From assembly GCA_023133295.1 (NCBI GenBank), contig JAGLWT010000037.1, positions 8,638 to 72,637 of the forward strand: a stretch of DNA of 64,000 nucleotides, read 5' to 3'. Positions within the stretch are counted from its first letter, which is position 1. Each line of letters begins with the position of its first letter. The position numbers and the translations under genes are program-made. Origin of the DNA: a bacterium (lineage in GTDB: Bacteria > AUK180). This document shows positions 44,113 to 64,000 of the stretch, one piece after another. The notes under the pieces are model-generated. The model saw nothing but the letters and a program-made list of their open reading frames with translations, did no database searches and had not been told where the DNA came from.

Positions 44113-44440
44113 GGGTGGTTGAAAGTGTTGAATATAAACAGCACGAATTCACATGTAATTTAACTAATGTTCGAATTTCTTTCTGCGAGCCACCTCTAAT
44201 GCGACATGGGGACGGTCGTTGAATAAGATTGTTCGCAAGTTCACAGGTTCCAGGTTCGCAAGTTGAGAAGGAGGGGACACTATTCGCAGAGTCCTTATTC
44301 CAGTCCTTCTGGAATTTTCCTTTCTCCTCTTTCTCGTATCTCCTCTCTCCTTCGCCTGATATTTTGTCAACCAAAATAGGGACGGAGGTATATTTTGTTG
44401 CATTTTGAGTTTATTTTTAGTATATAGAACAATTACACCA

Positions 44441-45626
44441 TCATTCCCAAGAAGATTTCTTAGTGTTCCACTTCACCCCGATAGTTGATTTCGTTTTAAT
44501 CGAATTAATGAGAGGTTCAAGAAAAAGGACGATTTCCTGCATGACTTCCCTAAAAGTGATATCCCCGGCATTAATATGTGATTTTCTCAAAAACGCTCGC
44601 CACATCTCCTCCCTTTTCTTATCTGCAGAGAATTCCTCCTTGAATATCGGATGGTTTTCAGGTATTGCTGTTTGCCTATTCCCAAAAGTTGCTTTAATTG
44701 CCTTTTTAAGAATGCCGCTTGATAGAGCGCGGTTTTTGGAAATATAATAAACATCATAGAAATCCTTCATCCGGCTATTCGCAATAGATAATCTTACCAT
44801 TGCTTCGAATTTTTCGGAAATAACACTTTCCACAGAATACCCGCTCACCTGAAAAGCCCCTTCAAGCAGGACCGGGAATTCTGTTTTTACCGTGCGAGGT
44901 ATAACCACATCTCCGAATCCGATATCGACCTGCAATCTTTTGCGTGCATTTTCCAAATGCGCATCGATCTTTATACGAATTCATAGGTGTTCTGATTCAT
45001 AAATACGATGACAATGGAATGCTTAGATTTGAGGTAATTCCAACGAACAATGAGTGCAGCGTACCCTTTGTGGTCCGCAAGCGAAGAGAGAGGAAGAAAT
45101 TGACCAAAGATGAGATTCCCTTCGGGCTGAAGCTCTTTTTCTGTCTTCTGCGTTGCTCGTCTCTTACATACCGCTGCGGGTATGCAGCGCTCCTCGCGTC
45201 TTGAATACGTAGCAAAATAGCGTCAGCCATTGTTACAGTCTTTATGAATCAGATCACTAGATACTCCGCATCAGACATTAAATTCTCTACTGTAATAGAG
45301 GAAGAAATAAACTCAACTCCATCATTCACATGATAGTCAGCTATTTGCTGAAATATTTCTTTGATCCTACCGAGATCATTGGGTATTTTCTTTGCCAGAA
45401 AATCGATATCTTTAGTCGAACGGCTCCTTGGCATATTTAGACATATCAGGAAAAGACCTCCTTTCAGTATGAAATTATCAGAGTACTCCGAGTTGAAAAT
45501 ACGATAAAGAAGCCTTTCCTGAAAATAGCGCAAGAGAAGTGTGTCAAAGTCCACTGATAACGACAATGCGGTATTCATAAGTTTTGCTCTGACCGACGCC
45601 GCTTTATTCTTGATTTCTCTTTCCAT
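44441..45626 (-). pseudogene. AbiEii-type nucleotidyltransferase toxin (DUF1814), interrupted by MITE copy 2
   Basis: The N-half (45626-45259) and C-half (44985-44441) each align with the intact paralogue 49030-49944, for example IRIKIDAHLENARKRLQVDIGFGD versus IRVKLKAKLGNSIISTQLDIGFGD. About 273 bp of MITE lies between them. Confidence 0.8.
44986..45258 (-). mobile_element. MITE-like element, copy 2 (~273 bp)
   Basis: The minus strand aligns end-to-end with 337-608. The terminal inverted repeats are AGTGATCTGATTCATAAA / TTTATGAATCAGAACACC. Boundaries are good to about 5 bp. Confidence 0.75.
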
Positions 45627-45641: not shown

Positions 45642-46253
45642 TCAAACTATTATTTCAAGCCACTTTCTGAGGAGAGATCCAATCCTACATATCTCAGCAC
45701 ATCTCATAAGCTCTTCCAGATCTCTATCCCTCGTTTTCAGATACGCAGTCAGCCCTTCTTTTGCCATATCGAGTCCCAGCTTATTCCGGTATCGGATACA
45801 GTCGCAAACTGTTTTCTCAGGAGAGTAAATACGGATCTTTTGCTTATTTATTAGAACCACATCAATACATTCTTCGAACTGATGCAGGGAGAATAGATAA
45901 AACTCGACAGGTGGGTATTTGATCATCGGTTTCCAAGACTCGCGATAGATCGCAACCGAGATCACTTCAGGAGTGTAAGTAGTCAGGTCATAATATGAGA
46001 GCGCAGAAAGAAGGCAAATAACACCTTCAGGCACCGCACGGGCGATATCTATAAAACTGCGATTAGATACAGCGGGAGAATCAGAAAGCCTGTAAAGGCC
46101 ATTTTTAACCTTAATTATAATTCCATCATCCAGCATTGAACGGATTTCCCTCTGATGCATTCCTTGAGCAAGTATATCATTTGTTATAGCATAACCATTA
46201 TTAGCTTTAAACAGTTTTATTATCTTTTTTCTCTTCTTATCCATTTCCTTCAC
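45642..46253 (-). CDS. AbiEi-type antitoxin/transcriptional regulator
   Basis: 203-aa ORF with NGYAITNDILAQGMHQREIRSMLDDGIIIKVKNGLYRL. It is collinear with 48437-49033. Confidence 0.8.
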   Translation of the reverse strand: MKEMDKKRKKIIKLFKANNGYAITNDILAQGMHQREIRSMLDDGIIIKVKNGLYRLSDSPAVSNRSFIDIARAVPEGVICLLSALSYYDLTTYTPEVISVAIYRESWKPMIKYPPVEFYLFSLHQFEECIDVVLINKQKIRIYSPEKTVCDCIRYRNKLGLDMAKEGLTAYLKTRDRDLEELMRCAEICRIGSLLRKWLEIIV

Positions 46254-46359: not shown

Positions 46360-46451
46360 GATATGAGAGGCCGGTTTCGAGTGAAACCGGAGATAGATTT
46401 TGATTTGCCGGCAAAATGTATTATGGGGACGGTGTTTCACTCCTTTCACTT

Positions 46452-47156
46452 TTAAAAGGAAGGAGATGTAAAAAAGGTGTAGCGGAGTCCAATTGTTATC
46501 TGCTGATTTTTCCAGACCCAACTGTCAAATTTCAAAATATTTGAAACTCCATAATAATAGTTTCCCTCAATTTGGAATCGGTCCGTCAGGGCAAATATCA
46601 ATCCTATTCTGACACCGAAATCAAACCAGTCAATATTCAGTTTATCAGATTTATTATCCCACAAGACTTCATCTCCTGTATATAATAGATCCCTTGTGCC
46701 ACTAAATAATGCAAACGATGTCTGAAATCCTATATTTATCATAAGCCTTTTGAATTTTATGCCATAATATATTGGTAATCCGATGTATGAAATATGTCTC
46801 CACACCTCTGATGTATATATTATACCTGAGGGATCTCCGTTAGCTAAGGTCCCCTCAAATTCTGTCAGCTCAAGGCCTTCGATCTGTAGGAAAAGCAATT
46901 CCGCTCCAAAAACTGATCTGTCATTAATTTTTACACTATAATAGATGCCTGCATTACCCGATAATGTAAATTTGTCATCAGGGAAAGAACTGGAAATTTT
47001 ACTCATACCGGGATTGATTTTTACTCCGAAACTATGCTGCACAAAAGCTACAGGATAGGTGTTAAGAAGAACCATTAAGGTCAGTATGATTGCCAGTTGT
47101 TTCAATCTCATTTTAGATTCATTAATTCTTATCCGTGCTTTGGCTTCTTTAGACAT
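46452..47156 (-). CDS. Outer-membrane beta-barrel (porin-family-like) protein
   Basis: 234-aa ORF with a signal-like LAIILTLMVLLNTYPVAFV, alternating beta-strand pattern and a C-terminal aromatic residue (..FFTSPSF). Confidence 0.65.
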   Translation of the reverse strand: MSKEAKARIRINESKMRLKQLAIILTLMVLLNTYPVAFVQHSFGVKINPGMSKISSSFPDDKFTLSGNAGIYYSVKINDRSVFGAELLFLQIEGLELTEFEGTLANGDPSGIIYTSEVWRHISYIGLPIYYGIKFKRLMINIGFQTSFALFSGTRDLLYTGDEVLWDNKSDKLNIDWFDFGVRIGLIFALTDRFQIEGNYYYGVSNILKFDSWVWKNQQITIGLRYTFFTSPSF

Positions 47157-48436: not shown

Positions 48437-49033
48437 ATGAGCAGAAAGGAAGATAAGGTTCTGAAAATAGTTGAAAAAGAAGGGATGATCACACCCAAGG
48501 AAATTGAAAAGAGAAATATTTCCCGGCAATACATTTATCAACTATATAGGAAAGGAAAACTGGAGAAAGTAAGTAGAGGGCTTTATAAACTTGCTAATAG
48601 CCTGTTTTCTCAGAATGAGATGCTTATAGCGGTAGCAAATAGCATCCCCGCTGCTACTATATGTCTTCTAACTGCTCTTAGATTTCATGATATGACCGTT
48701 CAGAATTCATATAGAATATGGATATCCATTCACCACAAGAGTCATTCTCCCAGGGCTAGTATTCCCCTAAAGATCATTAGGATGACAGGAAAATCACTGA
48801 CAGAAGGACGCGAAGAATATGTTATTGATAATACCAAGATATTTGTATATAATCCCGCTAAAACCGTTGCTGATTGTTTCAAATTTAGGAATAAGATCGG
48901 GATCGACGTAGCTCTTGAAGCCCTCCGAGAATTTATTGATCAGAAGAAGGGAACAATAGACGAGCTATGGAGATATGCGAAAATAGATCGTGTTCAGAAT
49001 ATTATTAGACCATACCTTGAGGTGCAGCTTTGA
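48437..49033 (+). CDS. AbiEi-type antitoxin
   Basis: 198-aa ORF with MITPKEIEKRNISRQYIYQLYRKGKLEKVSRGLYKL. It overlaps the toxin gene by 4 nt. Confidence 0.85.
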   Translation: MSRKEDKVLKIVEKEGMITPKEIEKRNISRQYIYQLYRKGKLEKVSRGLYKLANSLFSQNEMLIAVANSIPAATICLLTALRFHDMTVQNSYRIWISIHHKSHSPRASIPLKIIRMTGKSLTEGREEYVIDNTKIFVYNPAKTVADCFKFRNKIGIDVALEALREFIDQKKGTIDELWRYAKIDRVQNIIRPYLEVQL

Positions 49034-49944
49034 AGGATATGGATCTTATTCAATCTATTAAGCAACGCCTTCTGAATCTAGCAAGGAGCAACGGCGAAGA
49101 TTATAACCATGTATTGGTTCTTTATGGTATAGAGCGCTTTTTATATAGATTAAGCCTATCAAAATATGCCAATCTCTTCATTTTGAAAGGTGCGTTACTA
49201 CTGTATTGTTTAAAAGGAAACACACATCGAATGACTTCCGATATAGACCTATTATGCTCAAGGAAATTCAATTCTGAGGAATTGGAAAGTATTATCAAAG
49301 AAATTTGTAATGTTAATGGCCAGAGTGACGGATTAGTTTTTCAAACGGAAACTTTAAAAATCTCAGCAATAAAGAAAGAGGATGATTATGGTGGAATTCG
49401 AGTAAAATTAAAGGCCAAATTGGGTAATTCCATTATATCGACACAATTGGATATTGGTTTTGGAGATTATGTATTCCCCAAACCTCATGAGTGCAAATAC
49501 CCAACACTGCTTAATCTTTCTGCTCCGCAAATAATTGCCTATTCTCTTGAAACAAGCATAGCTGAAAAATTTCACGCAATGGTAAAAAATGGAATGTTTA
49601 ACAGCAGATTGAAAGACTTCTATGATATCTGGATAATGAGTAGTAATTATGATTTTCAAGGAAATCTATTACAAACCGCAATTGCGGGGACTTTTAAAAG
49701 GAGAAGGACTCAACTTCCATCTAATACCCCGGTCGCTCTGAGTGATGAATTCGCCCAAGACCAGAATAAAAATAAGCAGTGGAAAGGATTTTGTAATAGG
49801 ATCGGCGTGGAGAAGAATTTGTTACTTGAAGACATTATTGGAGAAATTAGTATATTTTTAATGCCTATTATTAAAGCTATCAAAGATAATTGTGATATCA
49901 ATAAGAAATGGTCCCACGATAAGAATAAGTGGATAGAAGAATGA
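49030..49944 (+). CDS. AbiEii-type nucleotidyltransferase toxin (DUF1814), intact
   Basis: 304-aa ORF with FILKGALLLY...TSDIDLL...QLDIGFGD...SIAEKFHAMV...RLKDFYDIW. Confidence 0.85.
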   Translation: MKDMDLIQSIKQRLLNLARSNGEDYNHVLVLYGIERFLYRLSLSKYANLFILKGALLLYCLKGNTHRMTSDIDLLCSRKFNSEELESIIKEICNVNGQSDGLVFQTETLKISAIKKEDDYGGIRVKLKAKLGNSIISTQLDIGFGDYVFPKPHECKYPTLLNLSAPQIIAYSLETSIAEKFHAMVKNGMFNSRLKDFYDIWIMSSNYDFQGNLLQTAIAGTFKRRRTQLPSNTPVALSDEFAQDQNKNKQWKGFCNRIGVEKNLLLEDIIGEISIFLMPIIKAIKDNCDINKKWSHDKNKWIEE

Positions 49945-50613
49945 AGAATGAATAGTGAAGAATGAATAGTGGCTAAATATAATTGACAATGGACAATTGA
50001 CAGTTGACAATTAAGGAATAGAAAACAGAGAGGATGGATTCCCGATCCCCGATGTAATCGGGGTTCCCAAGGTCACAAGCCCAATAACGGGAATGACTAA
50101 TGCGATGGATCCTTCGCCGAAAAGCTCAGGATGACAGGGAATCCGGAGGAATCCTCTTTCTCATGTCTCTTCTTTTTCTCATCTCCTCTTTCTCCTGTCT
50201 CTTCTCCTTCTCATCCCCTCTTTCTTCTTGTCCCCTCTTTCTCATTCCCCGCGATTGGCAACCAGACATGGGGACGGTGGTTGAAAGTGTTGAATAAAAG
50301 CAGCGTGTTTTTGCAAGTAATTCATGTATTGTTCGATTTTCTTTCTGCGAGCTGCCTCTAATGCGACATGGGGACGGTCGTTGAATAAGATTGTTCAAAG
50401 GTTCAAAAGTTCAAGGTTCAAAGTGGTGAAATAGGTGATCGGTAAAACGGGAAAGCACAAGAGGTAAATACCAGATGGATTCTTCGGTCGCTATCGCTCT
50501 TTCAGAATGACAAACAGCTAAACAAGTGGACCCAGTGGGACACGATTTGCAGAGTCCTTATTCCAGTCCTTCTGGAATTTTCCTTTCTCCCATTCCCCGC
50601 GATTGGCAACCAG

Positions 50614-50737
50614 ATATGGGGACGGTGGTTGACATTGTTGACATGATTCACCACTCGACAGCCGTAAGTATTGCTATAATAGACTGTAACGGCGATTCAC
50701 TCATTTAGAAATATTTCAAGAAAATGGGGCCAGAAGT
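50614..50737 (+). repeat. Module C copy
   Basis: atatggggacggtggttgacattgttgacatgattc...attgctataatagactgtaacggcgattcactcatttagaaatatttcaagaaaatggggccagaagt. Confidence 0.8.
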
Positions 50738-50978
50738 TAGGAATGATGCTGCGAAAAGACGCAGCGTTCAAAGTTCAAGGTTTAAAGGAGGGAAATAACG
50801 GATGGATCCTTCAATCACTAAGGCTCACTCAGGATGACACGATAGGATAGATGATAGGTTCCGAGGTGTGATATAAAGAGGTTATAGATTTCCGCTTTCG
50901 CGGGAATGACGAAATGTAATGAAGAATCGAGAAATGAAGGATGAAGAAAAGATAATGTACGAGAGAAAAGTGGTTATT

Positions 50979-51946: not shown

Positions 51947-52253
51947 AGCAAACACCTGAATATAGAGGTTGGAGGTTGGTGCAGAAGGGAATAATACGGA
52001 CTGCTGCACAGGGCCACAAGAGCACAAGTGACAAGTGCACAAGTGTACAAGGTACAAGGCACAGGGGACAAGGCACAAGTGCAGAAGTAAGTGTGAAGCG
52101 TAAAGTGGGAACGCACAAGAGGTAAATACAAGATGGATCCTTCGCCGAAAAGCTCAGGATGACAGGGAATCCGGAGGGATTCTCTTTCTCATGTCTCTTC
52201 TCTTTCTCATCCCCTCTTTTCCCTCCTTCCCATTCCCTGCGATTGGCAACCAG

Positions 52254-52379
52254 ATATGGGGACGGTGGTTGGCATAGTTGGCATAATTCGTCTCTATATT
52301 CCCCTGTAAGTAATGTTATAATAGACTGTAACGCCGATTTCCTCATTTAGAAATATTTCAAAAATACGGGGCCAGAAGT
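52254..52379 (+). repeat. Module C copy
   Basis: atatggggacggtggttggcatagttggcataattcg...aatgttataatagactgtaacgccgatttcctcatttagaaatatttcaaaaatacggggccagaagt. Confidence 0.8.
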
Positions 52380-52408
52380 GTGAGGAAGGTAGTTGCATCC
52401 CGGGATAA

Positions 52409-53215
52409 CTACTTCTCTGACAACTCCCCGAACAGGTCCATTATCCACCCCCAAGTGAAATCGCTCATCTCCACGTCGGGAAGGATACGGGAATTCGACA
52501 TACTGCTGAGACAGAGATTGTTCCAGAGTTTTCGGACCTTCACCTTCTTTATAGAATATTTTCGAAATACGCTTGCTATGACACTAGCATGCTGACCAGC
52601 CGCCTTCTCAATAGTTGCATCAAAATCTGCTGCAGCCATCTCGATGTTGTCGAGAACCCTATTTTCGATGCCTCTTATGAGTATAGCAGGAGCAAATCCC
52701 TTTCCCGAATCAATGATAGTGGTAAGATCTGCTATGGCTTTCTCCTTTTCTCCTTTTCTTGAATATAGATGGGCTCTTCGGAACAATGCTTCCGTTTTAA
52801 ACTCATCGGCTTCACTTGCTTTTGTAAAATCCTGGATCGCTTTCTCTTTATCCTTCTTTCTCCAATGGCATTTGCCTCTGTACAAATAGAGTACAGCTTT
52901 ATCGGGGTCAAGCTCTATTGCTTTGTCAAGTTCTGCAATTGCTTTTTCATAATCTCTAAGTATCGTATAGCATATCCCCTGTATCATGTGTACTTCTGAA
53001 TTCTCCAAATCCATTTTGAGAAACTTGTCGCATATTCCGACCGCCTGCAAATACACGTTTATTTCCGCATTCTTTCGGGCGCTTTCCACTAATGTCTTCA
53101 AATTAGCATTTTCTGCGCCCAATGCATATGCAGGAAGCACCACAATTGTAAGCAGAACGAAAAGGATGAACCTAATAGTTGAACTGTGAAACGAATTACC
53201 ATTTTTCTTAAGCAT
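52409..53215 (-). CDS. Secreted TPR-repeat protein
   Basis: I chose the start at 53215 (MLKKNG...) because AGGAGG lies upstream. It has signal peptide FILFVLLTIVVLPAYALG and several TPR units (...AIAELDKAIELDPDKAVLYLYRGKCH...). Confidence 0.7.
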   Translation of the reverse strand: MLKKNGNSFHSSTIRFILFVLLTIVVLPAYALGAENANLKTLVESARKNAEINVYLQAVGICDKFLKMDLENSEVHMIQGICYTILRDYEKAIAELDKAIELDPDKAVLYLYRGKCHWRKKDKEKAIQDFTKASEADEFKTEALFRRAHLYSRKGEKEKAIADLTTIIDSGKGFAPAILIRGIENRVLDNIEMAAADFDATIEKAAGQHASVIASVFRKYSIKKVKVRKLWNNLCLSSMSNSRILPDVEMSDFTWGWIMDLFGELSEK

Positions 53216-54122
53216 AATCTCCTCCTGTGGTATTATAACACAACAATTGGATATTGTCAATCAGACATTCCGAGCTGAAAAGTTGAAACACGTCCTTAGA
53301 AAGAACTTCGAAATCCAATAGTAAATATTGGAGACGGAGGCCTATAGGGAAGTGAATAGTGAACAGTGAACAATGAATAATGAATAATGAGAGAACGCAC
53401 AAGAAACAGATACCAACTGGATCCTTCGGTCGCTACCGCTCCTTCAGAATGACAAAAAGCTAAACAAGTGGACCCAGTGGGACACGATTTGCAGAGTCCT
53501 TATTCCAGTCCTTCTGGAATTTTCCTTTCTCCTCTTTCTCGGATCTCCTCTCTCCTTCGCCTGATATTTTGTCAACCAAAATAGGGACGGAGGTATATTT
53601 TGTTGCATTTTGAGTTTATTTTTAGTATGAGAGTGGATTGATTCCCGATCAAGTCGGGAATGACCCCGCATCTTAGTAAAAGTGCGGGGTAAACTCCATA
53701 GGAGATGGAGCCTTCGCCGAAAAGCTCAGGATGACAGGGAATCCGGAGGGATCCTCTTTCTCTTGTCTCTTCTCTTTCTCATCCCCTCTTTCCCCTTCCC
53801 ATCGCCTGACAACCATAATGGGGACGGTGGTTGAAAAGTTGAATATTGCATGTTCAAAAGTTCAAAGTGGAGCGAGATGGATCCTTCGCGCTGCTCAGGA
53901 TGACAGAATACAGTGAAAAGTGAAAAGTGAAAAATGAAGGAGGGAAAAGATGGATTATCGGGTCCCCGAAAATATCCGGGATTTCCGCTTCGCTACAACA
54001 AGCCCGATAATGACGGATTCCGGGATCTGGATGTATTCTCTTTCTGGAGTATTTCTGATCTCCTTCTCTATTAGTCTCCTCTTTCTGGTATTTCCCGGCC
54101 CCTTCGGGCATATTGGAAGCAG

Positions 54123-54246
54123 ATATGGGGACGGTGGTTGGCATAGTTGGCATAATTTGCCTCTATATTTTCCTGTAAGTATTGTTATAATAGACCGTAA
54201 CGGCGATTCACTCGTTTCGAAATATTTCAAGAAAAATGGGACCAGC
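54123..54246 (+). repeat. Module C copy
   Basis: Aligns with 50614, 52254, 54613 and 59706. Confidence 0.8.
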
Positions 54247-54612
54247 AATGCTGAGCTTGCTCAGCAAGTCTGAAGTGTGAGGTGTGAAGTGTCAAGTAGG
54301 GAAAAAGACGGGATGAAATAAAAACTGGATCCCACGGTCGCAAACTCCCTCTGGATGACACTCTTCAATTGTTCATTGTTCATTTCTGAATTGTTGACTG
54401 AATTTATCAACCTTGAACACGCTGCGCAGTGGACCCAGGGACAAGTGGACCCAGTGGAACACGCTTCGCAGAGCACAAGTGACAAGTGCACACGAGCACA
54501 AGCAGCAAATCCCGGAGGGATATTCCTCTGGAGTATTTCTGATATCCTCTTCTCTCTGTTCCCTCTCCTTCTGGTATTTCTCTCTTTCTCATTCCCCGCG
54601 ATTGGCAACCAG

Positions 54613-54737
54613 ACATGGGGACGGTGGTTGGCATAGTTGACATGATTCGCCACTCGGTAGCCGTATGTATTGCGTTATACGATTAATTCGGAGATTCGCT
54701 CATTTAGAAATATTTCAAAAATACGGGGCCAGAAGTT
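54613..54737 (+). repeat. Module C copy (degenerate centre)
   Basis: acatggggacggtggttggcatagttgacatgattcgccactcgg...catttagaaatatttcaaaaatacggggccagaagt. Confidence 0.75.
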
Positions 54738-54963
54738 AGTAATGATGCTGCGAAAAAACGCAGCGTTCAAAAGTTCAAAGTTGAGTGAGATGGATGTTTC
54801 GCGTTGCTCAGGATGACAGAATACAGTTAATAATGGAAGAAATCCTGGATGCCACGCCTGTGGCTCTGCATGACAGGGATGGGAACTGATAGAAGATATG
54901 GAACAATGGGTAGTAAGTTGCCCAGTGAAACACGCTTCGCGGAGCATCGGCAATGCTGTGTTT

Positions 54964-55425
54964 CTATTTTTTCTCTATCAGATATGAAATGAAATCTAAC
55001 CTCTCTTTTTTAAACATATTTTTTGCTTCGTTAAGTTTTTTTGCCAGGGGTTCTAATTCTTCCCACTCCAAACGAAATGAATATGAATGCCTAAAAAAAT
55101 GTCTGAAGGCAAGGAATTCGGATAAAACAGCTTTCAATCCTTCAGATATGACAGGAATACGGTCATCGGTTTCAATCACCATCTGCCTTAATAGATTTTT
55201 ATGCCAATTTTTGTTATCAAGATCTACTTTTTCATAAGCTTTTGATATGGACAATAAGGTGTTTTCTACCCCGTTATAGAAAGAATGTATAACAGTAGCG
55301 AATGCTGCTAATTCAATTTCATTAGGGGAACTGCTGTCTACCTTCTCAATTAATTTGCTATATATCTTGAATATTTCATTTATTTCTTCGATTTCGAATC
55401 GGATTTTACTTATTAATTCATTCAT
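54964..55425 (-). CDS. HEPN-domain (HepT-like) toxin
   Basis: 153-aa ORF with an R-x4-H-x-Y motif in FLAFRHFFRHSYSF. It lies 5 nt downstream of the MNT gene. Confidence 0.65.
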   Translation of the reverse strand: MNELISKIRFEIEEINEIFKIYSKLIEKVDSSSPNEIELAAFATVIHSFYNGVENTLLSISKAYEKVDLDNKNWHKNLLRQMVIETDDRIPVISEGLKAVLSEFLAFRHFFRHSYSFRLEWEELEPLAKKLNEAKNMFKKERLDFISYLIEKK

Positions 55426-55430
55426 ACTTC

Positions 55431-55730
55431 TTAAACATCAAGCCTTTTAAGCTGATTAATGCTAATCAGCAATTTTTCAAATTTTACATTCTTATCTAAA
55501 TCAATTAAATCGATTGAATGCTTTAACCTGCTAATTAACTTGCTGAAAATCCTGAAGAATTTACCTTTTGGACAACCCTTGATCGCGATATCTATATCTG
55601 AGTGATCTGTACATGTACCATTAGATAGAGAACCAAAAACATATATTTCAGAGCATCCTTCGCTCTTCAAAATCTTTAATGCCTCTGACACATCTTCCTG
55701 ATAACTTGTTGGTATGTTCATTTTCCTCAT
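55431..55730 (-). CDS. Minimal nucleotidyltransferase (MntA-like antitoxin)
   Basis: 99-aa ORF with IYVFGSLSNGTCTDHSDIDIAIKG. Confidence 0.8.
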   Translation of the reverse strand: MRKMNIPTSYQEDVSEALKILKSEGCSEIYVFGSLSNGTCTDHSDIDIAIKGCPKGKFFRIFSKLISRLKHSIDLIDLDKNVKFEKLLISINQLKRLDV

Positions 55731-56167
55731 CTTTTTAACCTAACCCTCACATTATACTACTATTTGTCAATAATTCAAGAATTCTATTCGTCAAGGGAAC
55801 GGTGACTTCAACCAGTCAACAATTCAGAAATGAACAATGGACACGCGGCGCAGAGCACAAGCGACAAGTGCAGAAGTAAGTGTGAAGTGTCAAGTAGGGA
55901 AAAAGACGGGATGAAATAAAAACTGGATCCCACGGTCGCAAACTCCCTCTGGATGACACTCTTCAATTGTTCATTTCTGAATTGTTGACTGAATTTATCA
56001 ACCTTGAACACGCTTCGTAGAGCACAAGCGACAAGTGCACAAGGCACAAGTGTGTAAGGGAAAAGGAAACACATCCGTAACCGGAAAATTGTTTAGGATA
56101 AGAATATATTTGTATTCTATCTTTTATAATTGTCAACTGTCAATTGTCCATTGTCAATTCTATTCCA

Positions 56168-57682
56168 CTAGAATCTCAAATTCAGTGTCAGGTAATGATT
56201 ATTTCGCTCGTCCATCATAATTGAGAGATAGGGGTCATTCCAGTCAAAGAATGCAGCGTCTATCATATTGTATGACCAGAAGAGAATGTGTGCAGCCAGA
56301 ACATAGTAGTAATCCATCTCAGCTTGCTCATAAGCAGATTTCAGATCCGGATCTTCTTTGTTGGCTTCATAGAGGTCTTTCTTATCAAGATAGACTATCA
56401 GATTATTTATATTGGCACCATCGAAGATCAATGTGGCTGTAATAAATGTCCACCCCTTCATTGTTTTGCCTTTGTAGAGCTGTCCCCAGCCGGGAAGTAG
56501 CGCTGAGCGCCATACAGCTCCAAACCTGGTGGCTCTTCCAATCTGTGTATTTGGGACGATCTCACCCGAAAAGCCTCTCAGATTGGATCTGCGGCGAAAT
56601 TCATCTTTGTACTTTCTGCCGGCTTCATAATCTCTGACACCCTCTATATGACCGCCTTTATCCCGGTCCTTATCTTTCTCGTGGCCGTAATGATTACCCT
56701 TGTCGCCTTTGTCCTTATCCTTGCCGTATTGGTTTCCGCTATTTTCCTTGTCATCCTTATCCTTCTTGTCTTTATCTTTGCCTTTTTCTTTATCTTCTTT
56801 CTCTTTCTTATCCTTCTTTTCTTTATCCTTGCCTTTCTCTTTATCTTCCTTGTCTTTCTTATCCTTCTTTTCTTTGTCTTTTCCCTGTTCCTTATCTTCC
56901 TTATCCTTCTTGTCCTTGTCCTCTTTATCTTTCTTTTCCTTATCTTCTTTGTCCTTCTTTTCCTTATCCTTGCCCTGTTCTTTATCTTCCTTCTCTTTCT
57001 TTTCCTTTTCCTCTTTTGCCTTCCTGTCCTTCTCTTCCTTCTCTTTCTTTTCCTTTTCTTCTTTTGCCTTCCTGTCCTTCTCTTTCTTTTCCTTTTCCTC
57101 TTTTGCTTTCCTGTCCTTCTCTTCCTTCTCTTTCTTGGCCTTTTCCTCTTTTGCCTTTTTGTCCTTCTCTTCCTTTTCTTTCTTTTCCTTTTCCTCTTTT
57201 GCTTTCTTGTCCCTTTCCTCCTTCTCTTTCTTTTCCTTTTCTTCCTTTGCCTTCTTGTCCTTTTCTTCCTTCTCTTTCTTTTCCTTTTCTTCTTTTGCCT
57301 TCTGATCCTTTTCCTCTTTATCTTTCTTTTCTTTTTCCTCTTTTACTTTCTTGTCCTTCTCTTTCTTCTCTTTCTTGGCCTTTTCTTCTTTTGCTTTCTT
57401 TTCCTTTTCTTCCTTTGCTTTTTTGTCCTTCTCTTTCTTATCTTTCTTGTCCTCTTTATCTTTCTTGTCTTCCTTATCCTTTTTGTCCTCCTTTTCTTTC
57501 TTTTCCTCCTCTTCTCTATCCTTCTTGGAGGAATCGTCCTCTTTTTTCGAATCGGATTCCTGAGCAAGCAGCATATGATCTCCGCTGAAGAGATCCTCAC
57601 CATTACCAGTAGCAGACATCTCTGTCCAAACACTTGTTACTGCGAATAAAATAATTACAATGCCTATGAGCTTCTTCATCAT
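56168..57682 (-). CDS. Secreted/membrane protein with a ~300-aa K/E/D low-complexity region and a C-terminal LPGWGQ-type membrane domain
   Basis: 504-aa ORF with signal KLIGIVIILFAVTSVW, a long (KEKEEKDKKAKEE)n region and a C-terminal WRSALLPGWGQLYKGKTMKGWTF. Confidence 0.6.
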   Translation of the reverse strand: MMKKLIGIVIILFAVTSVWTEMSATGNGEDLFSGDHMLLAQESDSKKEDDSSKKDREEEEKKEKEDKKDKEDKKDKEDKKDKKEKDKKAKEEKEKKAKEEKAKKEKKEKDKKVKEEKEKKDKEEKDQKAKEEKEKKEKEEKDKKAKEEKEKKEKEERDKKAKEEKEKKEKEEKDKKAKEEKAKKEKEEKDRKAKEEKEKKEKDRKAKEEKEKKEKEEKDRKAKEEKEKKEKEDKEQGKDKEKKDKEDKEKKDKEDKDKKDKEDKEQGKDKEKKDKKDKEDKEKGKDKEKKDKKEKEDKEKGKDKDKKDKDDKENSGNQYGKDKDKGDKGNHYGHEKDKDRDKGGHIEGVRDYEAGRKYKDEFRRRSNLRGFSGEIVPNTQIGRATRFGAVWRSALLPGWGQLYKGKTMKGWTFITATLIFDGANINNLIVYLDKKDLYEANKEDPDLKSAYEQAEMDYYYVLAAHILFWSYNMIDAAFFDWNDPYLSIMMDERNNHYLTLNLRF

Positions 57683-58072
57683 GGCCTCCTGTTTCGTGTA
57701 TTATGGCAATATATATGCCAGTTTGCAAGAGCAACAGAGCACACGAGCACAAGGCACAAGTGGACCCAGTGGAACAACAGACAAGAGAGAATGAAGAATG
57801 GAAGAAATCCTGAATGCCACGCCTGTGGCTCTGCATGACAGGGAGGAAAACTGGATTCCCGATCTAGTCGGGAATGACAGAGTGGATGGATCCTTCGCAA
57901 AAACCTCAGGATGACACGCAAGAGAGGACAGGTCCCCGATGTAATCGGGGTTTCCAAGGTCACAAGCCCTGTCCCTACGATCATTCTCTGTTGTATTTAT
58001 TTCCCTCTCCAATTATTCATTGTATTTACGCACTTGTCACTTGTGCTCGTGTGCACTTGTGCGCCTATCACC

Positions 58073-59053
58073 CTATTCCGTGCGTTTTCCGAGCATCGGG
58101 CCTTCCTTGTAGAGGATGTAGAGGACGACCGCCATGAAGATCACAGACACAATCGCGGTATAGGCGAAATCGTTAATATCCATGGTCGTTTCATTGAAGA
58201 TCCATTTCACTGCCGCGGAATCATTCACCATGCCGTGGATGGCGATACCGATCAGGATGCTTCCGCCGAGGCGGTTGTAGAAGTAGGTGATCACAATGGT
58301 GTACATTATACAGAGCATCGTGAAGATAAAATAGAAGAATACAAAATTCGCCATGCCGGTAAAGGGATTGACCTGTGTGATCTTGACGGGAATATGCCAG
58401 AGCGCCCACATAATGCCCAGGATGATACTGGCCTTGAGGGGTGTCATTTTCTTTTGAAGCCGGGGAAGGGCGAAGCCTCTCCAGCCGACCTCTTCCATCA
58501 GTCCCCCGCCGTCGAAAAAGAGGCCTGTGAGGAAGATGAATATGATCTGACCGATCGAATAAAAGGACTTGAACTCAAATAAAGCGCCGGTCGGTACATC
58601 GGTAATAAAGTTCTTCGTCACCGAGACGGCGATATTGATAAATGCGATGAGTACGATAGCCTGCATCCAGATCTTTAGGCCCTTTCTGGCGGAAATATCC
58701 GGTGCCCAGAAGCGGAATCTTGAAAAGAGCTCCTTAACACCAGCCTTTCCCTTGGTTATCGCGGAGATTATGATACCTGATAAAGTTGCTGTGAACGGCA
58801 GAGCCAAAAGGATGAAGAGGAACCACCATCCGCCCGCTACCTTTGCAACAATGGGCGCGGAATACAGTATATTGGTATTGTATCCCTTGCCGCCGGTTAT
58901 CTTGTCAACATCATCAACGAAGTTGGGGTAGTTAGTGAAGATGATCACCGCCAACGGCAAAAGCACGATTGAAAGAAGTCCCGCCAGTAGCCAGAATGAC
59001 AGTAGGTCGTGCTTTGTAATGTACGCTGCAAATTTTCCTTTTTCTTTAGGCAT
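58073..59053 (-). CDS. CPBP-family (CAAX/Abi) intramembrane protease
   Basis: 326-aa polytopic ORF with EEVGWRGFALPRL, MWALWHIP and AIHGMVN motifs. Confidence 0.8.
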   Translation of the reverse strand: MPKEKGKFAAYITKHDLLSFWLLAGLLSIVLLPLAVIIFTNYPNFVDDVDKITGGKGYNTNILYSAPIVAKVAGGWWFLFILLALPFTATLSGIIISAITKGKAGVKELFSRFRFWAPDISARKGLKIWMQAIVLIAFINIAVSVTKNFITDVPTGALFEFKSFYSIGQIIFIFLTGLFFDGGGLMEEVGWRGFALPRLQKKMTPLKASIILGIMWALWHIPVKITQVNPFTGMANFVFFYFIFTMLCIMYTIVITYFYNRLGGSILIGIAIHGMVNDSAAVKWIFNETTMDINDFAYTAIVSVIFMAVVLYILYKEGPMLGKRTE

Positions 59054-59237
59054 TTTTTGCTCCTCTTAAAATAGTTGATAGGGTGATAAGGTGATAGGTT
59101 GACAGGTGGGGAGTTATAGAGAAGTGAATAGTGTATAGTGAAGAGTTAAGAGATAAAGAAGAGGGTAGTTGAGAGAAGACAGCGAGTAAATCTATCTCTA
59201 ATTTCGCTTCTTTAGTCATCTATTCCCCGCATGGTTC

Positions 59238-59266
59238 AGTATACAGTATTCAGGTGCGATTTGCAA
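59238..59266 (-). promoter_or_regulatory. Promoter module P3 (TTGCAA-17-TATACT)
   Basis: -35 is at 59266-59261 and -10 at 59243-59238, 185 nt upstream of the start at 59053. The roughly 190 bp at 59110-59300 aligns with 47640-47830. Confidence 0.5.
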
Positions 59267-59705
59267 AGCAAACACCTGAATATAGAGGTTAGAGGCCTAT
59301 AGAGAAATTGACAATGGACAATTGACAATTAAAAGATCAAACACAATGAGATTTTTCTCAACTTTTGAACTTTTGAACATTTGAACATGCTTCGCAGTGA
59401 ACAATTACAGATAGAGGTTAGTGGGGAAGTGAAAAGTGAATAGTGAATAGTGAAAAATAAAAGAGGGAAAAGATGGATGTTTCGCGTTGCTCAACATGAC
59501 AAAGGACGGGTCCAGCCCGATAATGACGGGATACAGTGAATAGTGAACAGTGAACAATGAACAGTGAATAGTGAAAGAAATCCTGGATGCCACGCCTGTG
59601 GCTCTGCATGACAGGGAGGAAAACTGGATTCCCGATCCCCGATGTAATCGGGGTCTCCTCTTTTCCGTCTTTCCCTCTCCCCTTGCCTGATATTTCATTC
59701 AACAG

Positions 59706-59831
59706 ATATGGGGACGGTGGTTGGCATAGTTGGCATAATCCGCCTCTATATTCCCCTGTAAGTATTGTTATGATAGACTGTAACGGCGATTTACTCATTT
59801 AGAATTATTTCAAGAAAATGGGGCCAGAAGT
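59706..59831 (+). repeat. Module C copy
   Basis: atatggggacggtggttggcatagttggcataatccg...attgttatgatagactgtaacggcgatttactcatttagaattatttcaagaaaatggggccagaagt. Confidence 0.8.
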
Positions 59832-60238
59832 GAGTAGTAAGTGCCCCAGTGAACCAGTGGACCCAGTTGAACAAAAGTAAGTGCGCCAGTGACCTAGTCT
59901 TCCAGGTTCGAAAGCCGGAGGGATTCTCTTTTCCACCTCCTTGCTCTTTCTCGGATCTCTCTTATTCCCATCTTCTCCCTCCCATATTTCCCCCTCCTTC
60001 GCCTGTTATTTATTCAACAAATATGGGGACGGTGGTTGAAAGTGTTGAATAAAAACAGCGTGTTTTCGGAAGTAATTCACGCATTGTTCGACTTTCTTTC
60101 TGCTGTCTGCTTCAAATATGACATGGGGACGGAGGTTGAATAAGATTGTTCAAAGGTTCAAGGTTCCAAGTTGAGAAACAGGGAGGAGATTTTCACCGTA
60201 CAACAGTCGTTTGACTGTTTGATTGAAAGGATGAAAGC

Positions 60239-61399
60239 TTACCTAAATAGATTCAGATACGCAGTTAGCTCAAATAATCTGTTCCTTGAATGCCCGGTGA
60301 GTTCGGTCAGAAACCCGAAATCTATGAAATCTTGTATCGCCCTGGAAGCAGCAGGGAAACTCACTCCGAGGTATTGCGCTGTTTGAGTGATAGAAACTAC
60401 AGGATTGGAAAATAGAAATAATAAGAGCTTGTGTGCTTGGTTTGCTTTCTTACCCATAGATAGAATTCTTTCATCGTACTTTTGACGCAACAACAATATC
60501 GATCCGAGTGTTTCCTTTGCCTTTCTCGAAGATTCTATCATTCCGGAGAGAAAGAAATTGATCCATTGATCAAGATCATTTCCATTTCTAACCGTTGTCA
60601 AAGACGTATAGTACAAGCTTCTGTTCCTTTCGAAATAGTCGGACAGATACAAACTCGGTTTGGAAAGAATCTTTTGTTGAACAAGCTGCAGCGTGATCAG
60701 TAGGCGACCCATCCTGCCATTGCCATCGAGAAAAGGATGGATGGTCTCGAACTGATAGTGACTTATTGCTATCTTGATCAGATTTGGAGTAGAAAGATGC
60801 TTGTTGTGCCAGAATTTTTCCAGATCAGTCAGCAAATCCGGAAGATCTTCAGGATGAGGTGGAATAAATATAGCATCTTTCAGACTTGACCCGCCGATCC
60901 AATTCTGACTCCGTCTGATTTCTCCGGGATCTTTATAGTGTCCACGAACTCCAGATAGAAGAATTTTATGAGCTTCCTTAAGAAGCCGCATTGACAATGG
61001 AAGTGACTTAAGTTCAGTAACGGCATAATTCATCGCTCGGATATAATTATGCACCTCTTCCCAATCATTCCTGCTTTCAGGTGATATTTCATTAACAGGC
61101 ATTACGGCATCAATTATACTTGTCTTTGTACCTTCTATTTTACTGGAAGTTGTCGCCTCCTTCGTCACATGCATTTTAATAATGAAATCCACATCCGGAA
61201 TAAGTTCCGCATAAGCGTTCAATTCACCAAGACAATGCACCGCTTTTTCAACAAGAATTGGGATTTGCATGTCCGACCAGATGTATTCTCGGTTAACCAG
61301 AGTTGGTAAAAAACTCTGATACTCATAATTCTGACGATAATTGCCTGAATCATAAGAACTTCTCTTTTTCATATTTCCTCTCTCGATATATATTAACAC
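60239..61399 (-). CDS. Fic-family protein (AMPylase-type) with a C-terminal wHTH
   Basis: 386-aa ORF with the Fic motif HPFLDGNGRMGRLL. The real start may be the MKKRSS codon at 61372. Confidence 0.85.
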   Translation of the reverse strand: MLIYIERGNMKKRSSYDSGNYRQNYEYQSFLPTLVNREYIWSDMQIPILVEKAVHCLGELNAYAELIPDVDFIIKMHVTKEATTSSKIEGTKTSIIDAVMPVNEISPESRNDWEEVHNYIRAMNYAVTELKSLPLSMRLLKEAHKILLSGVRGHYKDPGEIRRSQNWIGGSSLKDAIFIPPHPEDLPDLLTDLEKFWHNKHLSTPNLIKIAISHYQFETIHPFLDGNGRMGRLLITLQLVQQKILSKPSLYLSDYFERNRSLYYTSLTTVRNGNDLDQWINFFLSGMIESSRKAKETLGSILLLRQKYDERILSMGKKANQAHKLLLFLFSNPVVSITQTAQYLGVSFPAASRAIQDFIDFGFLTELTGHSRNRLFELTAYLNLFR

Positions 61400-61563
61400 A
61401 TAATGAGAATGTAGTCAATACGCGACACGGTATTAACGAATTTTATACTTTGCGTTAATATAAGTGTTAATAAGTGGCATTGCTATTAACACTTCAAAGG
61501 TTAAGTATTGACAAGTAAATAAAGTATCGGCTCTTTACCTTTTACTTTCTCAAGTGCTGCAAT

Positions 61564-61592
61564 TTGAAAAACGAGCATAAATCAAGTAAAAT
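61564..61592 (+). promoter_or_regulatory. Promoter (TTGAAA-17-TAAAAT) with a hairpin-containing leader
   Basis: -35 is at 61564-61569 and -10 at 61587-61592, 82 nt upstream of the ATG at 61674. The leader hairpin is CCGGTTTC-gagt-GAAACCGG. Confidence 0.55.
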
Positions 61593-61673
61593 GATACGAG
61601 AGGCCGGTTTCGAGTGAAACCGGAGATAGATTTTGATTTGCCGGCAAAACGCGCTTTCCGGCAAGGAGGAAAA

Positions 61674-62540
61674 ATGAAAAAATTATTAATGCTCTTACTT
61701 TTGACCGTCCTGATATCCTTTAGTACAGATTCAGCAGAATTCAACTACGGAGTAAACATAGATCTCGGCGGCAGTACTCTTACCTGTAGCAACCTTAAGG
61801 ACGCTTTGGAATTTTATCAACTTGGTGATATGGATATAAAAGAATACACGACAAAAGCCACACCTGGATTTGGATTTGAGCTTGGAGGATATTTTGAATA
61901 TCTTATTTCCGAAGCTATGAATCTTCGCTTTTCAATCAATTACCTCTCAATCAGGTCCACCATCTCCATCGACAGGATCGAAGATGACTCCCATACTGAC
62001 CTCACCTGGAGGAAAGATATACAATCCAAAGCAACTTTCAGTCTCAATTTTATCAATATACCCATAGTGTGTAAATTCAAGCTCGGAGAGACAGGAAAGG
62101 TTTTTCTTCTTGGGGGATTAGAATTCAAATTTCCCATGAATGCTGAGATGTCTTCGGAAGAGATCGTATTGGACGAAACCTATACTTTGGGAGAACTCAC
62201 CGATTCACAAATCGTTACAGTCAAATATGACTCAAATATTGATTCCATCTATACTACGATGACGGACCTGATATTGGGAGCGGGGATGGAATTCCCCTTT
62301 GGCAGCTCTGTGATGGAGATCTTGATCAATATTAACATACCCCTGTCTAAGCAACAATTGTACACTTCAAATCCTTGGTTCCACGATATAGCGGAGAACA
62401 ATGAGGCATTTACATTTAACGGGAAAAATGACATCTATAAAGATACCGGCAAATTGCTGGATGACTTCACTAACTGGTCATTATTTATTACCGCCACATA
62501 TAGGCTTGGGAGTATTGGCGGAAGCAAAACCGAGCACTAG
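61674..62540 (+). CDS. Outer-membrane beta-barrel protein
   Basis: I chose the start at MKKLLMLLLLTVLISF (signal peptide). It has alternating beta-strand pattern and a C-terminal ...ITATYRLG. Confidence 0.6.
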   Translation: MKKLLMLLLLTVLISFSTDSAEFNYGVNIDLGGSTLTCSNLKDALEFYQLGDMDIKEYTTKATPGFGFELGGYFEYLISEAMNLRFSINYLSIRSTISIDRIEDDSHTDLTWRKDIQSKATFSLNFINIPIVCKFKLGETGKVFLLGGLEFKFPMNAEMSSEEIVLDETYTLGELTDSQIVTVKYDSNIDSIYTTMTDLILGAGMEFPFGSSVMEILININIPLSKQQLYTSNPWFHDIAENNEAFTFNGKNDIYKDTGKLLDDFTNWSLFITATYRLGSIGGSKTEH

Positions 62541-62937
62541 AGCACAAGCGACAAGTGCACAAGGCACAAGTGCAGAGGGGAATAAATACAATTGACAATG
62601 GACAATTGACAATGGACAATTGACAGTTGACAATTACTAAGAAATGTTCACAAGTTGAGAAATATTAATAACATTAAAAGATGTGTGGGGGATGTTTCCG
62701 TTTGATTCTAACGGGGCGAAGAGTGTACAATTGCTTCACAATTTTCAACTCTCCGCTTGGTCCTTTTACACCCGGACAGACGAACGCCTATGGCGTACGA
62801 CATGTCCCATATCTTGTTTGGGGTACGGCGTGATATGATTGTAACAGGAAGATTAGTGGGTTAATCGAAATAACGATTTTCCGGTTACGGATGTGCTTTT
62901 TTCCTTCCCCGCTAATTTCTGTTTGTTGTATCAAGTG

Positions 62938-63741
62938 TTATTTTTGGTAACGTTTGGGATTTATAAGGTTTTCACCTTTTCTTATCTTACCGGATTGCCA
63001 GACATGCCAAGTACCATTGATCTTTCCTTTTATCCCCCAATATTTATATCCGCCTTTTGGGGGTCGAGGGCCGCTGAAACTAGTCATTGTTATTAAAGCC
63101 GCATCCTTCATATTATATTTTTCAGCAATGATCTTTATAACTCTCTGCTGAAACTCCTTTGATTCCAAAATGTATTTGGGATGAATTCCCGTAATAGGCT
63201 CAAGGAATGTTTCAAGCTCTTTATCTGTGTATTCTTTATTTGGATCGTAGCATTCCCTCTTATTTTTATCAGAAGCACGAACAGCAACGGGTTTTACTAT
63301 ATTCTCCTTGACAGGTACTTGAGGGGTATAGGTTGATTGAAAATCTATTAATGTGTAAAGCGGATTCTCTCCGGAAAGATAAAATATACCACGCTCTTTG
63401 ATCTTAAGGGCGCGAAAACTCAGCAATAATTCTCTTCCTTTTACGGAAATAGAGATAGTTTCCCCATTTTTAATGGATTTTCCTTCTAAAACTGCTATAA
63501 TTTTTACTGTATAAATGATCTCTTCTAAAATGTCCGGCCTGCCCATTAAAGGATTGGACCGCCTATCCCATATTTCTTTTTTATTAAGGATCTCTCCTTT
63601 TAAAATTGCATTGGAATCTTTTGCACATTCCTTATTTATAATAGTGCCTGAATTACTCTCTTGCTTTCTCAGGTTCATGGCAAATAGGTTGTTAAATAAT
63701 AGGCAAATAGTAAGAATTTTTAAAAACATGATGTTTTTCAT
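62938..63741 (-). CDS. Secreted hypothetical protein
   Basis: 267-aa ORF with signal FLKILTICLLFNNLFA. Confidence 0.5.
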   Translation of the reverse strand: MKNIMFLKILTICLLFNNLFAMNLRKQESNSGTIINKECAKDSNAILKGEILNKKEIWDRRSNPLMGRPDILEEIIYTVKIIAVLEGKSIKNGETISISVKGRELLLSFRALKIKERGIFYLSGENPLYTLIDFQSTYTPQVPVKENIVKPVAVRASDKNKRECYDPNKEYTDKELETFLEPITGIHPKYILESKEFQQRVIKIIAEKYNMKDAALITMTSFSGPRPPKGGYKYWGIKGKINGTWHVWQSGKIRKGENLINPKRYQK

Positions 63742-63769
63742 TACTTTCTCTCTTCGTACTTCGCACTGT

Positions 63770-63925: not shown

Positions 63926-64000
63926 TACTGACTATTTTCTTGTAGTACTCGTAGGTATCCGCGACGGTTTTCGCCACAGAGAATTTTTCGCGCACAAGCT
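63918..64000 (-). CDS. 3' end of a gene whose start lies beyond the window (tail resembles glycosyltransferase C-termini, weak)
   Basis: Minus-strand frame gives ...LVREKFSVAKTVADTYEYYKKIVSSK*. Only 27 codons are visible. Confidence 0.3.
   Translation of the reverse strand, partial: LVREKFSVAKTVADTYEYYKKIVSSK

Follow-up and report, generated by a model that had tools for sequence, protein, structure and literature searches.

A gene-free block of stacked repeats in a bacterial defence island and its link to a TIRYT-type transposase gene

In a bacterial sequence of 64,000 nucleotides (the window, i.e. the whole stretch of DNA analysed here), positions 53261-54963 are occupied by non-coding repeat DNA. 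With a probability of roughly two in three, this block consists of several short interspersed repeat families stacked head-to-tail, the core of which is linked to a transposase gene of the TIRYT type. The best-defined family comprises the "GGGGACGG-box" elements, to which the repeat modules C and F belong, as does the end of module B; module C is the ~125-nt inverted repeat that flanks a TIRYT-type gene in the same genome. This core family is an unusually dense and polar form of the TIRYT/TIRtron kind, and neither a new gene nor a new RNA. The window is part of a 146-kb scaffold from a cold-seep metagenome, sample SAMN18200500, and the same organism is represented by the metagenome-assembled genome (MAG) GCA_030631245.1.

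Repeat content of the block and its link to a transposase gene

When the window was compared with itself by BLAST, 86% of the block had at least one other copy inside the window (mean of 2.8 copies per base). Coverage was 72-95% in the six other blocks that the original prediction had listed as gene-free and 0% in seven coding controls of similar size. In a homology search for conserved proteins, ten open reading frames (ORFs) of 61-138 aa from the block and two neighbouring blocks gave no credible Pfam match, the only match being at chance level and under the family cut-off (E = 0.048). Thus, the description of 1.7 kb without a credible gene, built of recurring modules, holds, and the module coordinates of the original prediction were all reproduced.

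Module A was mapped at 50098, 52126 and 53698, module B at 44274, 50451 and 53479, module D at 6867 (minus strand), 54847 and 59585, with a related copy at 57794, and module E at 50048, 57935 and 59638. Module F starts at 44101, 50263 and 60018; its second copy (50263-50415, plus strand, repeat family D10) contains two ATGGGGACGG boxes in direct orientation, 100 nt apart. Module C has five plus-strand copies, two inside the block (54114-54250 and 54604-54744) and three outside it (50605-50745, 52245-52387 and 59697-59839), and a sixth, inverted relative to these, in the window's left half (925-1057, minus strand). The repeats had been described as limited to 47.5-60.2 kb; in fact, heptamer arrays and box elements span the whole 64 kb and a further 5.6 kb past its left end. 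The 14-mer GGGGACGGTNGTTG occurs 15 times in the window (0.00 expected from shuffles), and there are about 30 boxes per 64 kb. Word depth in Logan is ~30-38x over genes and 100-1500x over the blocks, indicating that the modules are multi-copy in the genome or in the community; for module C, it reaches ~10-16x the gene depth.

Decayed coding sequence or real small genes are a very improbable explanation of the block. Public annotation calls ORFs within it at 53950-54273 (107 aa) and 54794-54889 (31 aa), and, in several copies, a hydrophobic peptide of 17 aa (MGTVVGIVGII...) could start at the ATG of the box. Against this, besides the lack of Pfam matches, the ORFs cross module boundaries, copies of module C differ from each other by a 2-nt indel, and the peptide was rejected because the ATG is missing in many copies, being replaced by CG or TT, and because one copy, in locus L007, has an early in-frame stop.

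The link to a transposase comes from the MAG of the same organism. On its contig DAOVLN010000012 (63.8 kb), a Y1_Tnp (Y1/HUH) transposase gene, P0001, lies among housekeeping genes (queD-like, rnhB, a xerC-like integrase, rlmN, alaS and recG) and, together with an MBL-fold gene, is enclosed by full inverted copies of module C (locus L111, 9843-9967, plus strand, and 11798-11924, minus strand). The left copy ends exactly at the P0001 promoter, TTGACA-17-TAGCAT, and a solo third copy is present at L111 3364-3496. The predicted protein has 290 aa, carries the motifs NHIH, FQGRY and YIHLNP, and matches Y1_Tnp and, faintly, HTH_23 of Pfam, the latter as a C-terminal helix-turn-helix (HTH). It scores 57 bits against the NCBIfam model REP_Tyr_transpos, under the 80-bit equivalog cut-off, and 22 bits against the IS200 model. 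In TnpA_Y1 subclass 2.1, the motifs are NH[VYF]H, FQ and Y[IV]HLNP, followed by a C-terminal HTH; this subclass is without REP hairpins and has been equated with the TIRYTs of Di Nocera et al. 2013 (Quentin et al. 2018, PMC6006769). By its sequence, P0001 is a gene of this TIRYT type and subclass and a relative of the RAYTs.

Related units were found in other genomes. A sister MAG, JAIVYW01, is 93-96% identical in nucleotide sequence to the MAG of the window in shared DNA (the submitters' label, Candidatus Atribacteria, is unverified). In its locus L021, a protein gene lies directly downstream of a module C copy; P0001 is the 95%-identical orthologue of this protein, and the two units are laid out alike. 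Within the module C-bounded unit, the two genomes differ by ~1.05 kb with a CPBP protease gene (L021 1851-2903 vs. L111 11712-11791). The L021 protein is 50% identical to that of a 285-aa Y1_Tnp gene located between two inverted GGGGACGG boxes in a WOR-3 MAG (locus L017). In sediment metagenomes, ~35%-identical genes are bracketed by inverted TGGGGTCAGACTTGTTTATTG sequences ~1 kb apart in 15 of the 19 loci checked; the sediment loci L031-L054 are compact ~1-kb units with inverted TGGGGTCAGACTTGTTTATTG ends and a TTGACA promoter inside the left end. The 19-mer ATGGGGACGGTGGTTGRMA recurs in a few MAGs.

TIRtrons are TIRYT genes flanked by terminal inverted repeats (TIRs) that share GGGGWSAS, and some of these repeats make up families of moderate abundance, with copies in dimers or clusters (Di Nocera et al. 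2013, PMC3733652). The present case has the same make-up: a RAYT-like Y1/HUH protein with NHxH, FQ, Y[IV]HLNP and a C-terminal HTH; non-palindromic inverted repeats that open with a GGGG box and flank P0001; and further copies of the repeat in intergenic DNA, often clustered (the six copies of module C in the window and that at L111 3364-3496), with the gene itself in few copies (one found here). It differs in that the ends are long (~125 nt) with two GGGG boxes, the outer one joined to two tandem 9-mers that vary between sub-families; that the unit carries passengers (the MBL-fold gene, with or without CPBP); that the density is high (the 15 exact 14-mers and ~30 boxes noted above); and that copies all point the same way across tens of kb and take set places among other repeats. 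Proliferating small elements, one of the explanations originally offered, therefore find support, given that the modules are multi-copy and common to related MAGs and that module C is the flanking repeat of a Y1 gene.

Several observations weigh against the TIRYT-linked reading of the block. Neither box is a full match to GGGGWSAS (7 of 8 positions for both the outer box, GGGGACGG, and the inner box, GGGGCCAG); the L021 inner box, GGGGTCAG, a sequence also found in the sediment family, matches at 8 of 8. Module C alone flanks the gene: hairpins, CT-rich tracts, heptamers and the R motif (all described below) are absent around P0001. Array copies are direct and not inverted pairs. No pair of filled and empty sites was seen, and HUH transposition leaves no target duplication. 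A single TIRYT-type gene was found in the MAG, more distant paralogues being possible in the unsampled part of the genome, and activity of TIRYTs on TIRs has not been experimentally demonstrated in PMC3733652 or PMC6006769. Finally, the set of hairpins used for covariation was chosen for pairing, so that stem diversity alone counts as evidence.

Two other transposase-associated systems were considered. As in REP/BIME and REPIN-RAYT systems (REP, repetitive extragenic palindromic), a low-copy transposase relative is flanked by a repeat that populates intergenic DNA, and, as in BIMEs, blocks are mosaics made from a small set of motifs. However, REPs are imperfect palindromes of 20-40 nt with a GT[AG]G or CGTC tag at the foot, and module C has neither the palindrome nor the tag; the 26-nt hairpins described below, though palindromic, are framed by GG...GAC, no framed hairpins flank P0001, and the arrays are direct, unlike the inverted pairs of REPINs; membership of the REP/REPIN-RAYT group was therefore rejected. 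IS200/IS605 elements have subterminal hairpins at both ends, encode a TnpA of ~150 aa and occur in multiple near-identical copies. In contrast, the ends of the P0001 unit are not hairpins, the protein has 290 aa with an HTH tail and scores 22 bits to IS200, and the gene was found on a single MAG contig and one unitig of the same run; hence, an IS200/IS605 element or a miniature derivative was rejected as well.

Under the TIRYT-linked reading, the dispersed solo box copies would most likely derive from TIRtron ends and could have spread by action of the transposase on single-stranded DNA, by local duplication or recombination between copies, or by both. Orientation is kept on either route, which would account for the arrays and for modules keeping so strictly to one strand. 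The heptamer and CT-rich stretches resemble slippage-prone filler travelling with the elements, which would pile up in an island with long, weakly constrained intergenic spacers.

Hairpins, module order and promoter-like signals

Modules A, D and E share a common frame, consisting of GG, a stem starting with AT, a loop, a complementary stem ending with AT, and GAC. The canonical form, the 26-mer GGAT-N5-ATCARGT-N5'-ATGAC, is present in the lineage of the window, in a WOR-3 MAG and in MAG AUK180, which also have in common the whole kit of hairpins, boxes and GTTCAAA repeats. Eleven canonical hairpins were found in the DNA searched, compared to ~0.02 expected by chance by our own estimate. Among ten distinct 26-mers from the three lineages, there are seven different stems, always complementary and set in one frame. 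The original prediction called for covariation analysis of modules D and E; in the set examined, the diversity of stems in a single frame counts as evidence, whereas the percentage of paired positions is circular because the set was picked for pairing. Stable folds are limited to the canonical 26-mers (z = -3.3 and -5.0), most open-loop hairpins of modules A and D being thermodynamically weak.

These modules represent a second, REP-like hairpin family, similar to REPs in being short and in combining a constant frame with variable stems, and different from them in being framed by GG...GAC and located away from the transposase gene. In the 20.9-kb housekeeping stretch of L111 around P0001, the scan revealed three copies of module C and no framed hairpins, CT-rich tracts or heptamer arrays; the association of hairpins and transposase is one of co-occurrence alone, since the hairpins do not flank the gene. 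In MAG AUK180, a 940-nt intergenic mosaic (L009 1682-2622) contains hairpins GGATTCC...GGAATGAC and arrays of GGTTCAAA, along with two GGGACGG boxes that form an inverted pair.

The modules are polar and ordered. Pattern mapping showed a fixed succession of the hairpin framed by GGAT...ATGAC, a small GGAGG hairpin (AATCCGGAGGGAT), a CT-rich tract of 60-100 nt, the box ATGGGGACGGTGG with two tandem 9-mers, and a tail; between such units lie heptamer-to-nonamer arrays and the R motif (ACACGCTTCGCAGAG). The block contains about four and a half ordered units. Twin 9-mers are near-identical inside one element and different between elements (GTTGGCATA twice, GTTGACATT twice, GTTGAAAGT/GTTGAATAA and TTTCACTTC twice). 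In module C, GGGG boxes are found at both ends, the inner box (GGGGCCAGAAG) being ~110 nt downstream of the outer one, and module F is the span between two outer-type boxes 100 nt apart. The short repeats of heterocystous cyanobacteria known as STRR (short tandemly repeated repetitive) sequences form intergenic arrays in which varied heptamers stand in 3-7 copies, with small repeats nested in larger ones. The heptamer arrays of the window are likewise intergenic and nested, and differ in sequence, in lineage and in being tied to a fixed module order on one strand.

Outside genes, all oriented modules (boxes, framed hairpins and R motifs) are on the plus strand at 43.8-60.2 kb and on the minus strand in the region that starts 5.6 kb before the window and reaches 29.3 kb, a rule obeyed by 15 of the 15 exact GGGGACGGTNGTTG matches. 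This polarity is independent of gene orientation, the minus strand holding most genes in both halves, and GC skew in the window follows the gene strand. The switch of strand, located at 29.3-43.8 kb, is contained in one unitig of 15.6 kb and is thus not a scaffolding artefact. In this interval are a QueC/deoxyribosyltransferase/Ogg cluster, a protein of 700 aa without Pfam match and a type I hsdMSR locus. It is conceivable, at long odds, that Y1 transposases of subclass 2.1 work on the composite unit (framed hairpin, CT-rich tract, GGGGACGG box and twin 9-mers) as their single-strand substrate, its polarity resulting from replication-coupled head-to-tail insertion beside copies already in place.

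The original prediction pointed to an extended -10 (TGnTATAAT) in module C facing DNA without ORFs, and considered production of non-coding RNA. The motif is exact in three of the five plus-strand copies and has no exact match in the other two. A primarily regulatory role, with the modules as portable promoters or operators and module C, in this half of the island, as the source of small or antisense RNAs that run into convergent toxin/defence genes (ORF6N, TPR, HepT-MNT and Fic) from their 3' ends, is an unlikely overall explanation. All five copies indeed aim at the 3' end of a minus-strand gene, promoter-like sites number 44 compared to 26.6 +/- 4.9 in shuffles, and, in the WOR-3 unit, the second 9-mer is the -35 of the predicted transposase promoter. 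However, the extended -10 is not conserved in the family, being absent from both transposase-flanking copies and from loci L004, L006 and L029; the distance of the -35-like 9-mers to the -10, 31-40 nt, is wrong for a promoter; and the hairpins, CT-rich tracts and heptamers would be left unexplained.

RNA structure also argues against this role. With Rfam, the whole window gave no match at the gathering score and, at E <= 1, the 47-61 kb region gave one long non-coding RNA match at chance level (E = 0.14). For module C, module F and six composite units, folded as DNA or RNA, the z-scores lie between -1.7 and +1.9 (close to 0 for module C and the composites), none beating shuffles, and RNAalifold on 14 copies of module C returned nothing but a trivial invariant stem. 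A structured non-coding RNA of any Rfam family was rejected on the basis of these scores, and, together with the unconserved -10, they give non-coding RNA production no support.

Another point in favour of regulation is a 92-nt box-type element in minus orientation (7554-7645, 10128-10219, 13895-13986, 16212-16303, 30810-30901 and 32485-32576), which ends with TTGAAA-17-TAAAAT and looks like a portable promoter. Two copies are directly upstream of the Shine-Dalgarno (SD) sequence and start codon of minus-strand genes starting at 16189 and 32463, and a third is 53 nt from the gene start at 30756. The elements of the block, unlike these left-half elements, point against genes. It is therefore plausible, judging from the sequence, that some box elements carry sigma-70-like promoters and so can affect neighbouring genes, this regulatory side effect being secondary to their nature as TIRYT-linked repeats. 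A sigma-54 site, TGGCAT-N-TTGGCA, was rejected for its GG-to-GC spacing of 10 nt instead of 12.

Composition of the block

The block is bounded on the left by the promoter of a TPR-repeat gene (52409-53215, minus strand) and on the right by the stop codon of a HepT toxin gene (54964-55425, minus strand), which is paired with an MNT gene (55431-55730). The TPR promoter (53232-53260, minus strand) is TTGACA-17-TATAAT with TG, a 12/12 match, followed by the SD GGAGGAG; this perfect promoter with its SD led us to reject a Bacteroidetes-type promoter. All features listed next are on the plus strand unless stated otherwise.

From the left, a heptamer array of AGTGAAT, AGTGAAC and AATGAAT (53328-53395, repeat family D2) precedes an open-loop variant of the framed hairpin, GGATCC...CAGAATGAC, with a weak fold (53419-53453). 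Module B (53479-53628), 98% identical to 44274-44423, is made of the R motif ACACGATTTGCAGAG, a CT-rich tract and the degenerate box AGGGACGGAGG at 53583-53593. It is followed by a canonical 26-nt hairpin, TGATTCCCGATCAAGTCGGGAATGAC, with an 8-bp stem (53639-53664; z = -3.3), by an unstranded hairpin, CCCCGCA-N12-TGCGGGG (53664-53689), and by module A (53698-53811, family D17), in which a framed hairpin (53707-53735), the small hairpin AATCCGGAGGGAT (53740-53752) and a CT-rich tract (53748-53811) can be told apart. The box element ATGGGGACGGTGG with GTTGAAAAGTTGAATATTG (53817-53850) comes next, and then a GTTCAAA array with a framed hairpin at 53879-53904 (53852-53925; 88% identical to 54765-54838), a heptamer array of AGTGAAA (53905-53949) and the framed hairpin GGATTATCGGG...CCCGATAATGAC (53952-54014), which has ~37 nt extra in its loop and an uninterrupted 28-mer counterpart in loci L006 and L019.

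After a CT-rich tract (54022-54112), the first module C copy of the block (54114-54250) contains an ATG at 54125, the outer box at 54127-54137, two 9-mers GTTGGCATA at 54137-54154, TGTTATAAT at 54183-54191 and the inner box GGGACCAGCAA at 54238-54248. The hairpin GCTGAGCTTGCTCAGC and a heptamer array of AAGTGTG (54250-54297) lead into a segment 91% identical to 55880-56040 (54282-54450), which includes a framed hairpin at 54327-54359. Two R motifs (ACACGCTKCGCAG), CAGTGGACC 9-mers and a GCACAAGTGACAAGT array (54417-54504) are followed by the small hairpin CCGGAGGGATATTCCTCTGG with a CT-rich tract (54505-54600) and by the second copy of module C, without an exact -10 (54604-54744; outer box at 54617-54627, inner box GGGGCCAGAAG at 54725-54735). 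The right end consists of the hairpin GCTGCGAAAAAACGCAGC, a GTTCAAA array and a framed hairpin at 54792-54817 (54747-54838), the module D hairpin GGATGCCACGCCTGTGGCTCTGCATGAC in the GG-AT...AT-GAC frame (54847-54874), and an R motif (54930-54944), 20 nt from the HepT stop codon.

The longest exact repeat found, 96 nt at 54282-54377, contains the end of the MAG contig at 54322. From 54322 to 64000 the two assemblies agree at 100%; we infer the exact module order in 53261-54322 from a single short-read scaffold, because the MAG contig stops there. It is quite unlikely that the block is partly an assembly artefact, with real modules in an order or number that is chimeric across loci or strains between 53261 and 54322. 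Such an origin could account for the contig end inside the exact repeat, for the Logan unitigs that break throughout the blocks, with many alternative joints in the source run, and for the 100-N gap elsewhere on the scaffold. It is at odds with the identity of 54322-54963 in two assemblies, with similar mosaics in independent MAGs (L027 and L009), and with the length of the exact repeats seen (<100 nt), which paired short reads could bridge if their lengths are ordinary. The 100-N gap of the public scaffold is at 28253/28254, in a 60-nt tandem-repeat region of gene 27990-29000; the sequence of the window joins its sides directly, with the Ns removed.

Genomic setting and implications

All 64 kb are accessory or defence DNA. 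The genes encode an adenylate cyclase, a DUF4143 ATPase, two AAA_21/RloB pairs, a KAP NTPase, a SocA/Panacea protein, the QueC-deoxyribosyltransferase-Ogg cluster, type I restriction-modification, ORF6N, MNT/HepT (two MNT genes, one of which is paired with HepT), a CPBP protease, Fic, and two AbiEi/AbiEii pairs, one of them broken. The intact AbiEi/AbiEii pair is at 48437-49944; in the other, AbiEii is split into ORFs 44441-44956 and 45249-45626, probably a pseudogene, next to AbiEi (45642-46253). A 504-aa protein (56168-57682, minus strand) has an N-terminal hydrophobic segment, a long Lys/Glu/Asp-rich repeat (DNA periods of 9, 24 and 48) and a C-terminal domain without annotation on record; the long ORFs opposite to it are artefacts of its repeat. 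A 100-nt element (...GGTAAAAAGTAAAGACACGGTACCCTAT; 3443-3542, 6961-7060, 7986-8085, 24292-24391, 27839-27938 and 35876-35975) lies 8-52 nt past the stop codon of a minus-strand gene in four of six copies and directly after a stop codon in the MAG of another species (L027, ~1650-1700). Viral contigs gave a single match, unrelated and inside a GC-rich coding region, and a literature search for the box sequence found nothing relevant.

The remark that such a density of structured non-coding DNA is unusual for a bacterium was fair; however, the density is a property of the accessory/defence island, given that the 20.9-kb housekeeping stretch of the same genome has few elements. The lineage appears to be deep and sparsely sampled, as the nearest relatives of its AlaRS (L111 11961-14555) are merely 53-55% identical and labelled "bacterium", followed by proteins with 41-43% identity across many phyla.

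This setting invites the view that the blocks are recombination scaffolds, i.e. linkers that let defence cassettes swap, in the manner of integron attC sites or Neisseria NIME/dRS3 arrays, which we consider rather doubtful. The island character of the entire window would fit, as would the difference in the CPBP gene between TIR-bounded units of two close relatives, the same modules next to other defence-type genes in L027, and a segmental duplication of the 3' end of an outer membrane protein (OMP) gene together with a box. The latter comprises 269 nt with 93-95% identity (43833-44101 and 46414-46682), covering the end of the OMP beta-barrel gene and a TTTCAC-type box, and its 43.8-kb copy is a gene fragment. 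However, the 64 kb showed neither an integrase nor any other recombinase, the elements have no attC-like symmetry, the blocks are 0.4-1.7 kb long instead of one site per gene, module C is also found in housekeeping DNA, and an exchange event was never directly observed.

The same evidence bears on integrons proper. An attC site is an imperfect inverted repeat, RYYYAAC...GTTRRRY, of 57-141 nt, with one site per cassette, and the array adjoins an IntI integrase with attI. The island resembles an integron in that recurring non-coding DNA sets apart numerous small genes with accessory, toxin-antitoxin and defence functions. In contrast, its blocks are polar, mostly non-palindromic and many times longer than attC, and Phage_integrase had no match in 29 scanned ORFs and the public gene calls for 44-64 kb of the window. 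An integron cassette array was thus rejected for lack of an integrase and of attC symmetry and because modules occur outside the island as well. The suggestion that the blocks are decayed cassette linkers fails on similar grounds: the same modules lie between unrelated genes in L027 and L009, they are strand-polar and, hairpins aside, not palindromic, and no integrase or attC-like symmetry was seen.

Taken as TIRYT-linked repeats, the elements are moderately interesting for research on HUH transposases and on REP-like repeats, and they matter in practice for annotation and assembly. Such blocks are best masked as repeats, because gene callers set spurious ORFs and assemblers break contigs there. 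TIRYT (subclass 2.1 Y1) proteins are widespread, and a dense TIR lineage in one orientation, with sub-families and co-travelling hairpins, offers a natural test case for them, which bears on whether they act on single-stranded DNA at the replication fork. If the composite unit were indeed their substrate, a domesticated TIRYT would actively build polar repeat arrays and so shape the defence islands of several sediment lineages that branch deeply. Since some boxes sit exactly where promoters belong, the repeats may influence neighbouring defence genes, i.e. the expression or shuffling of toxin-antitoxin and restriction genes.

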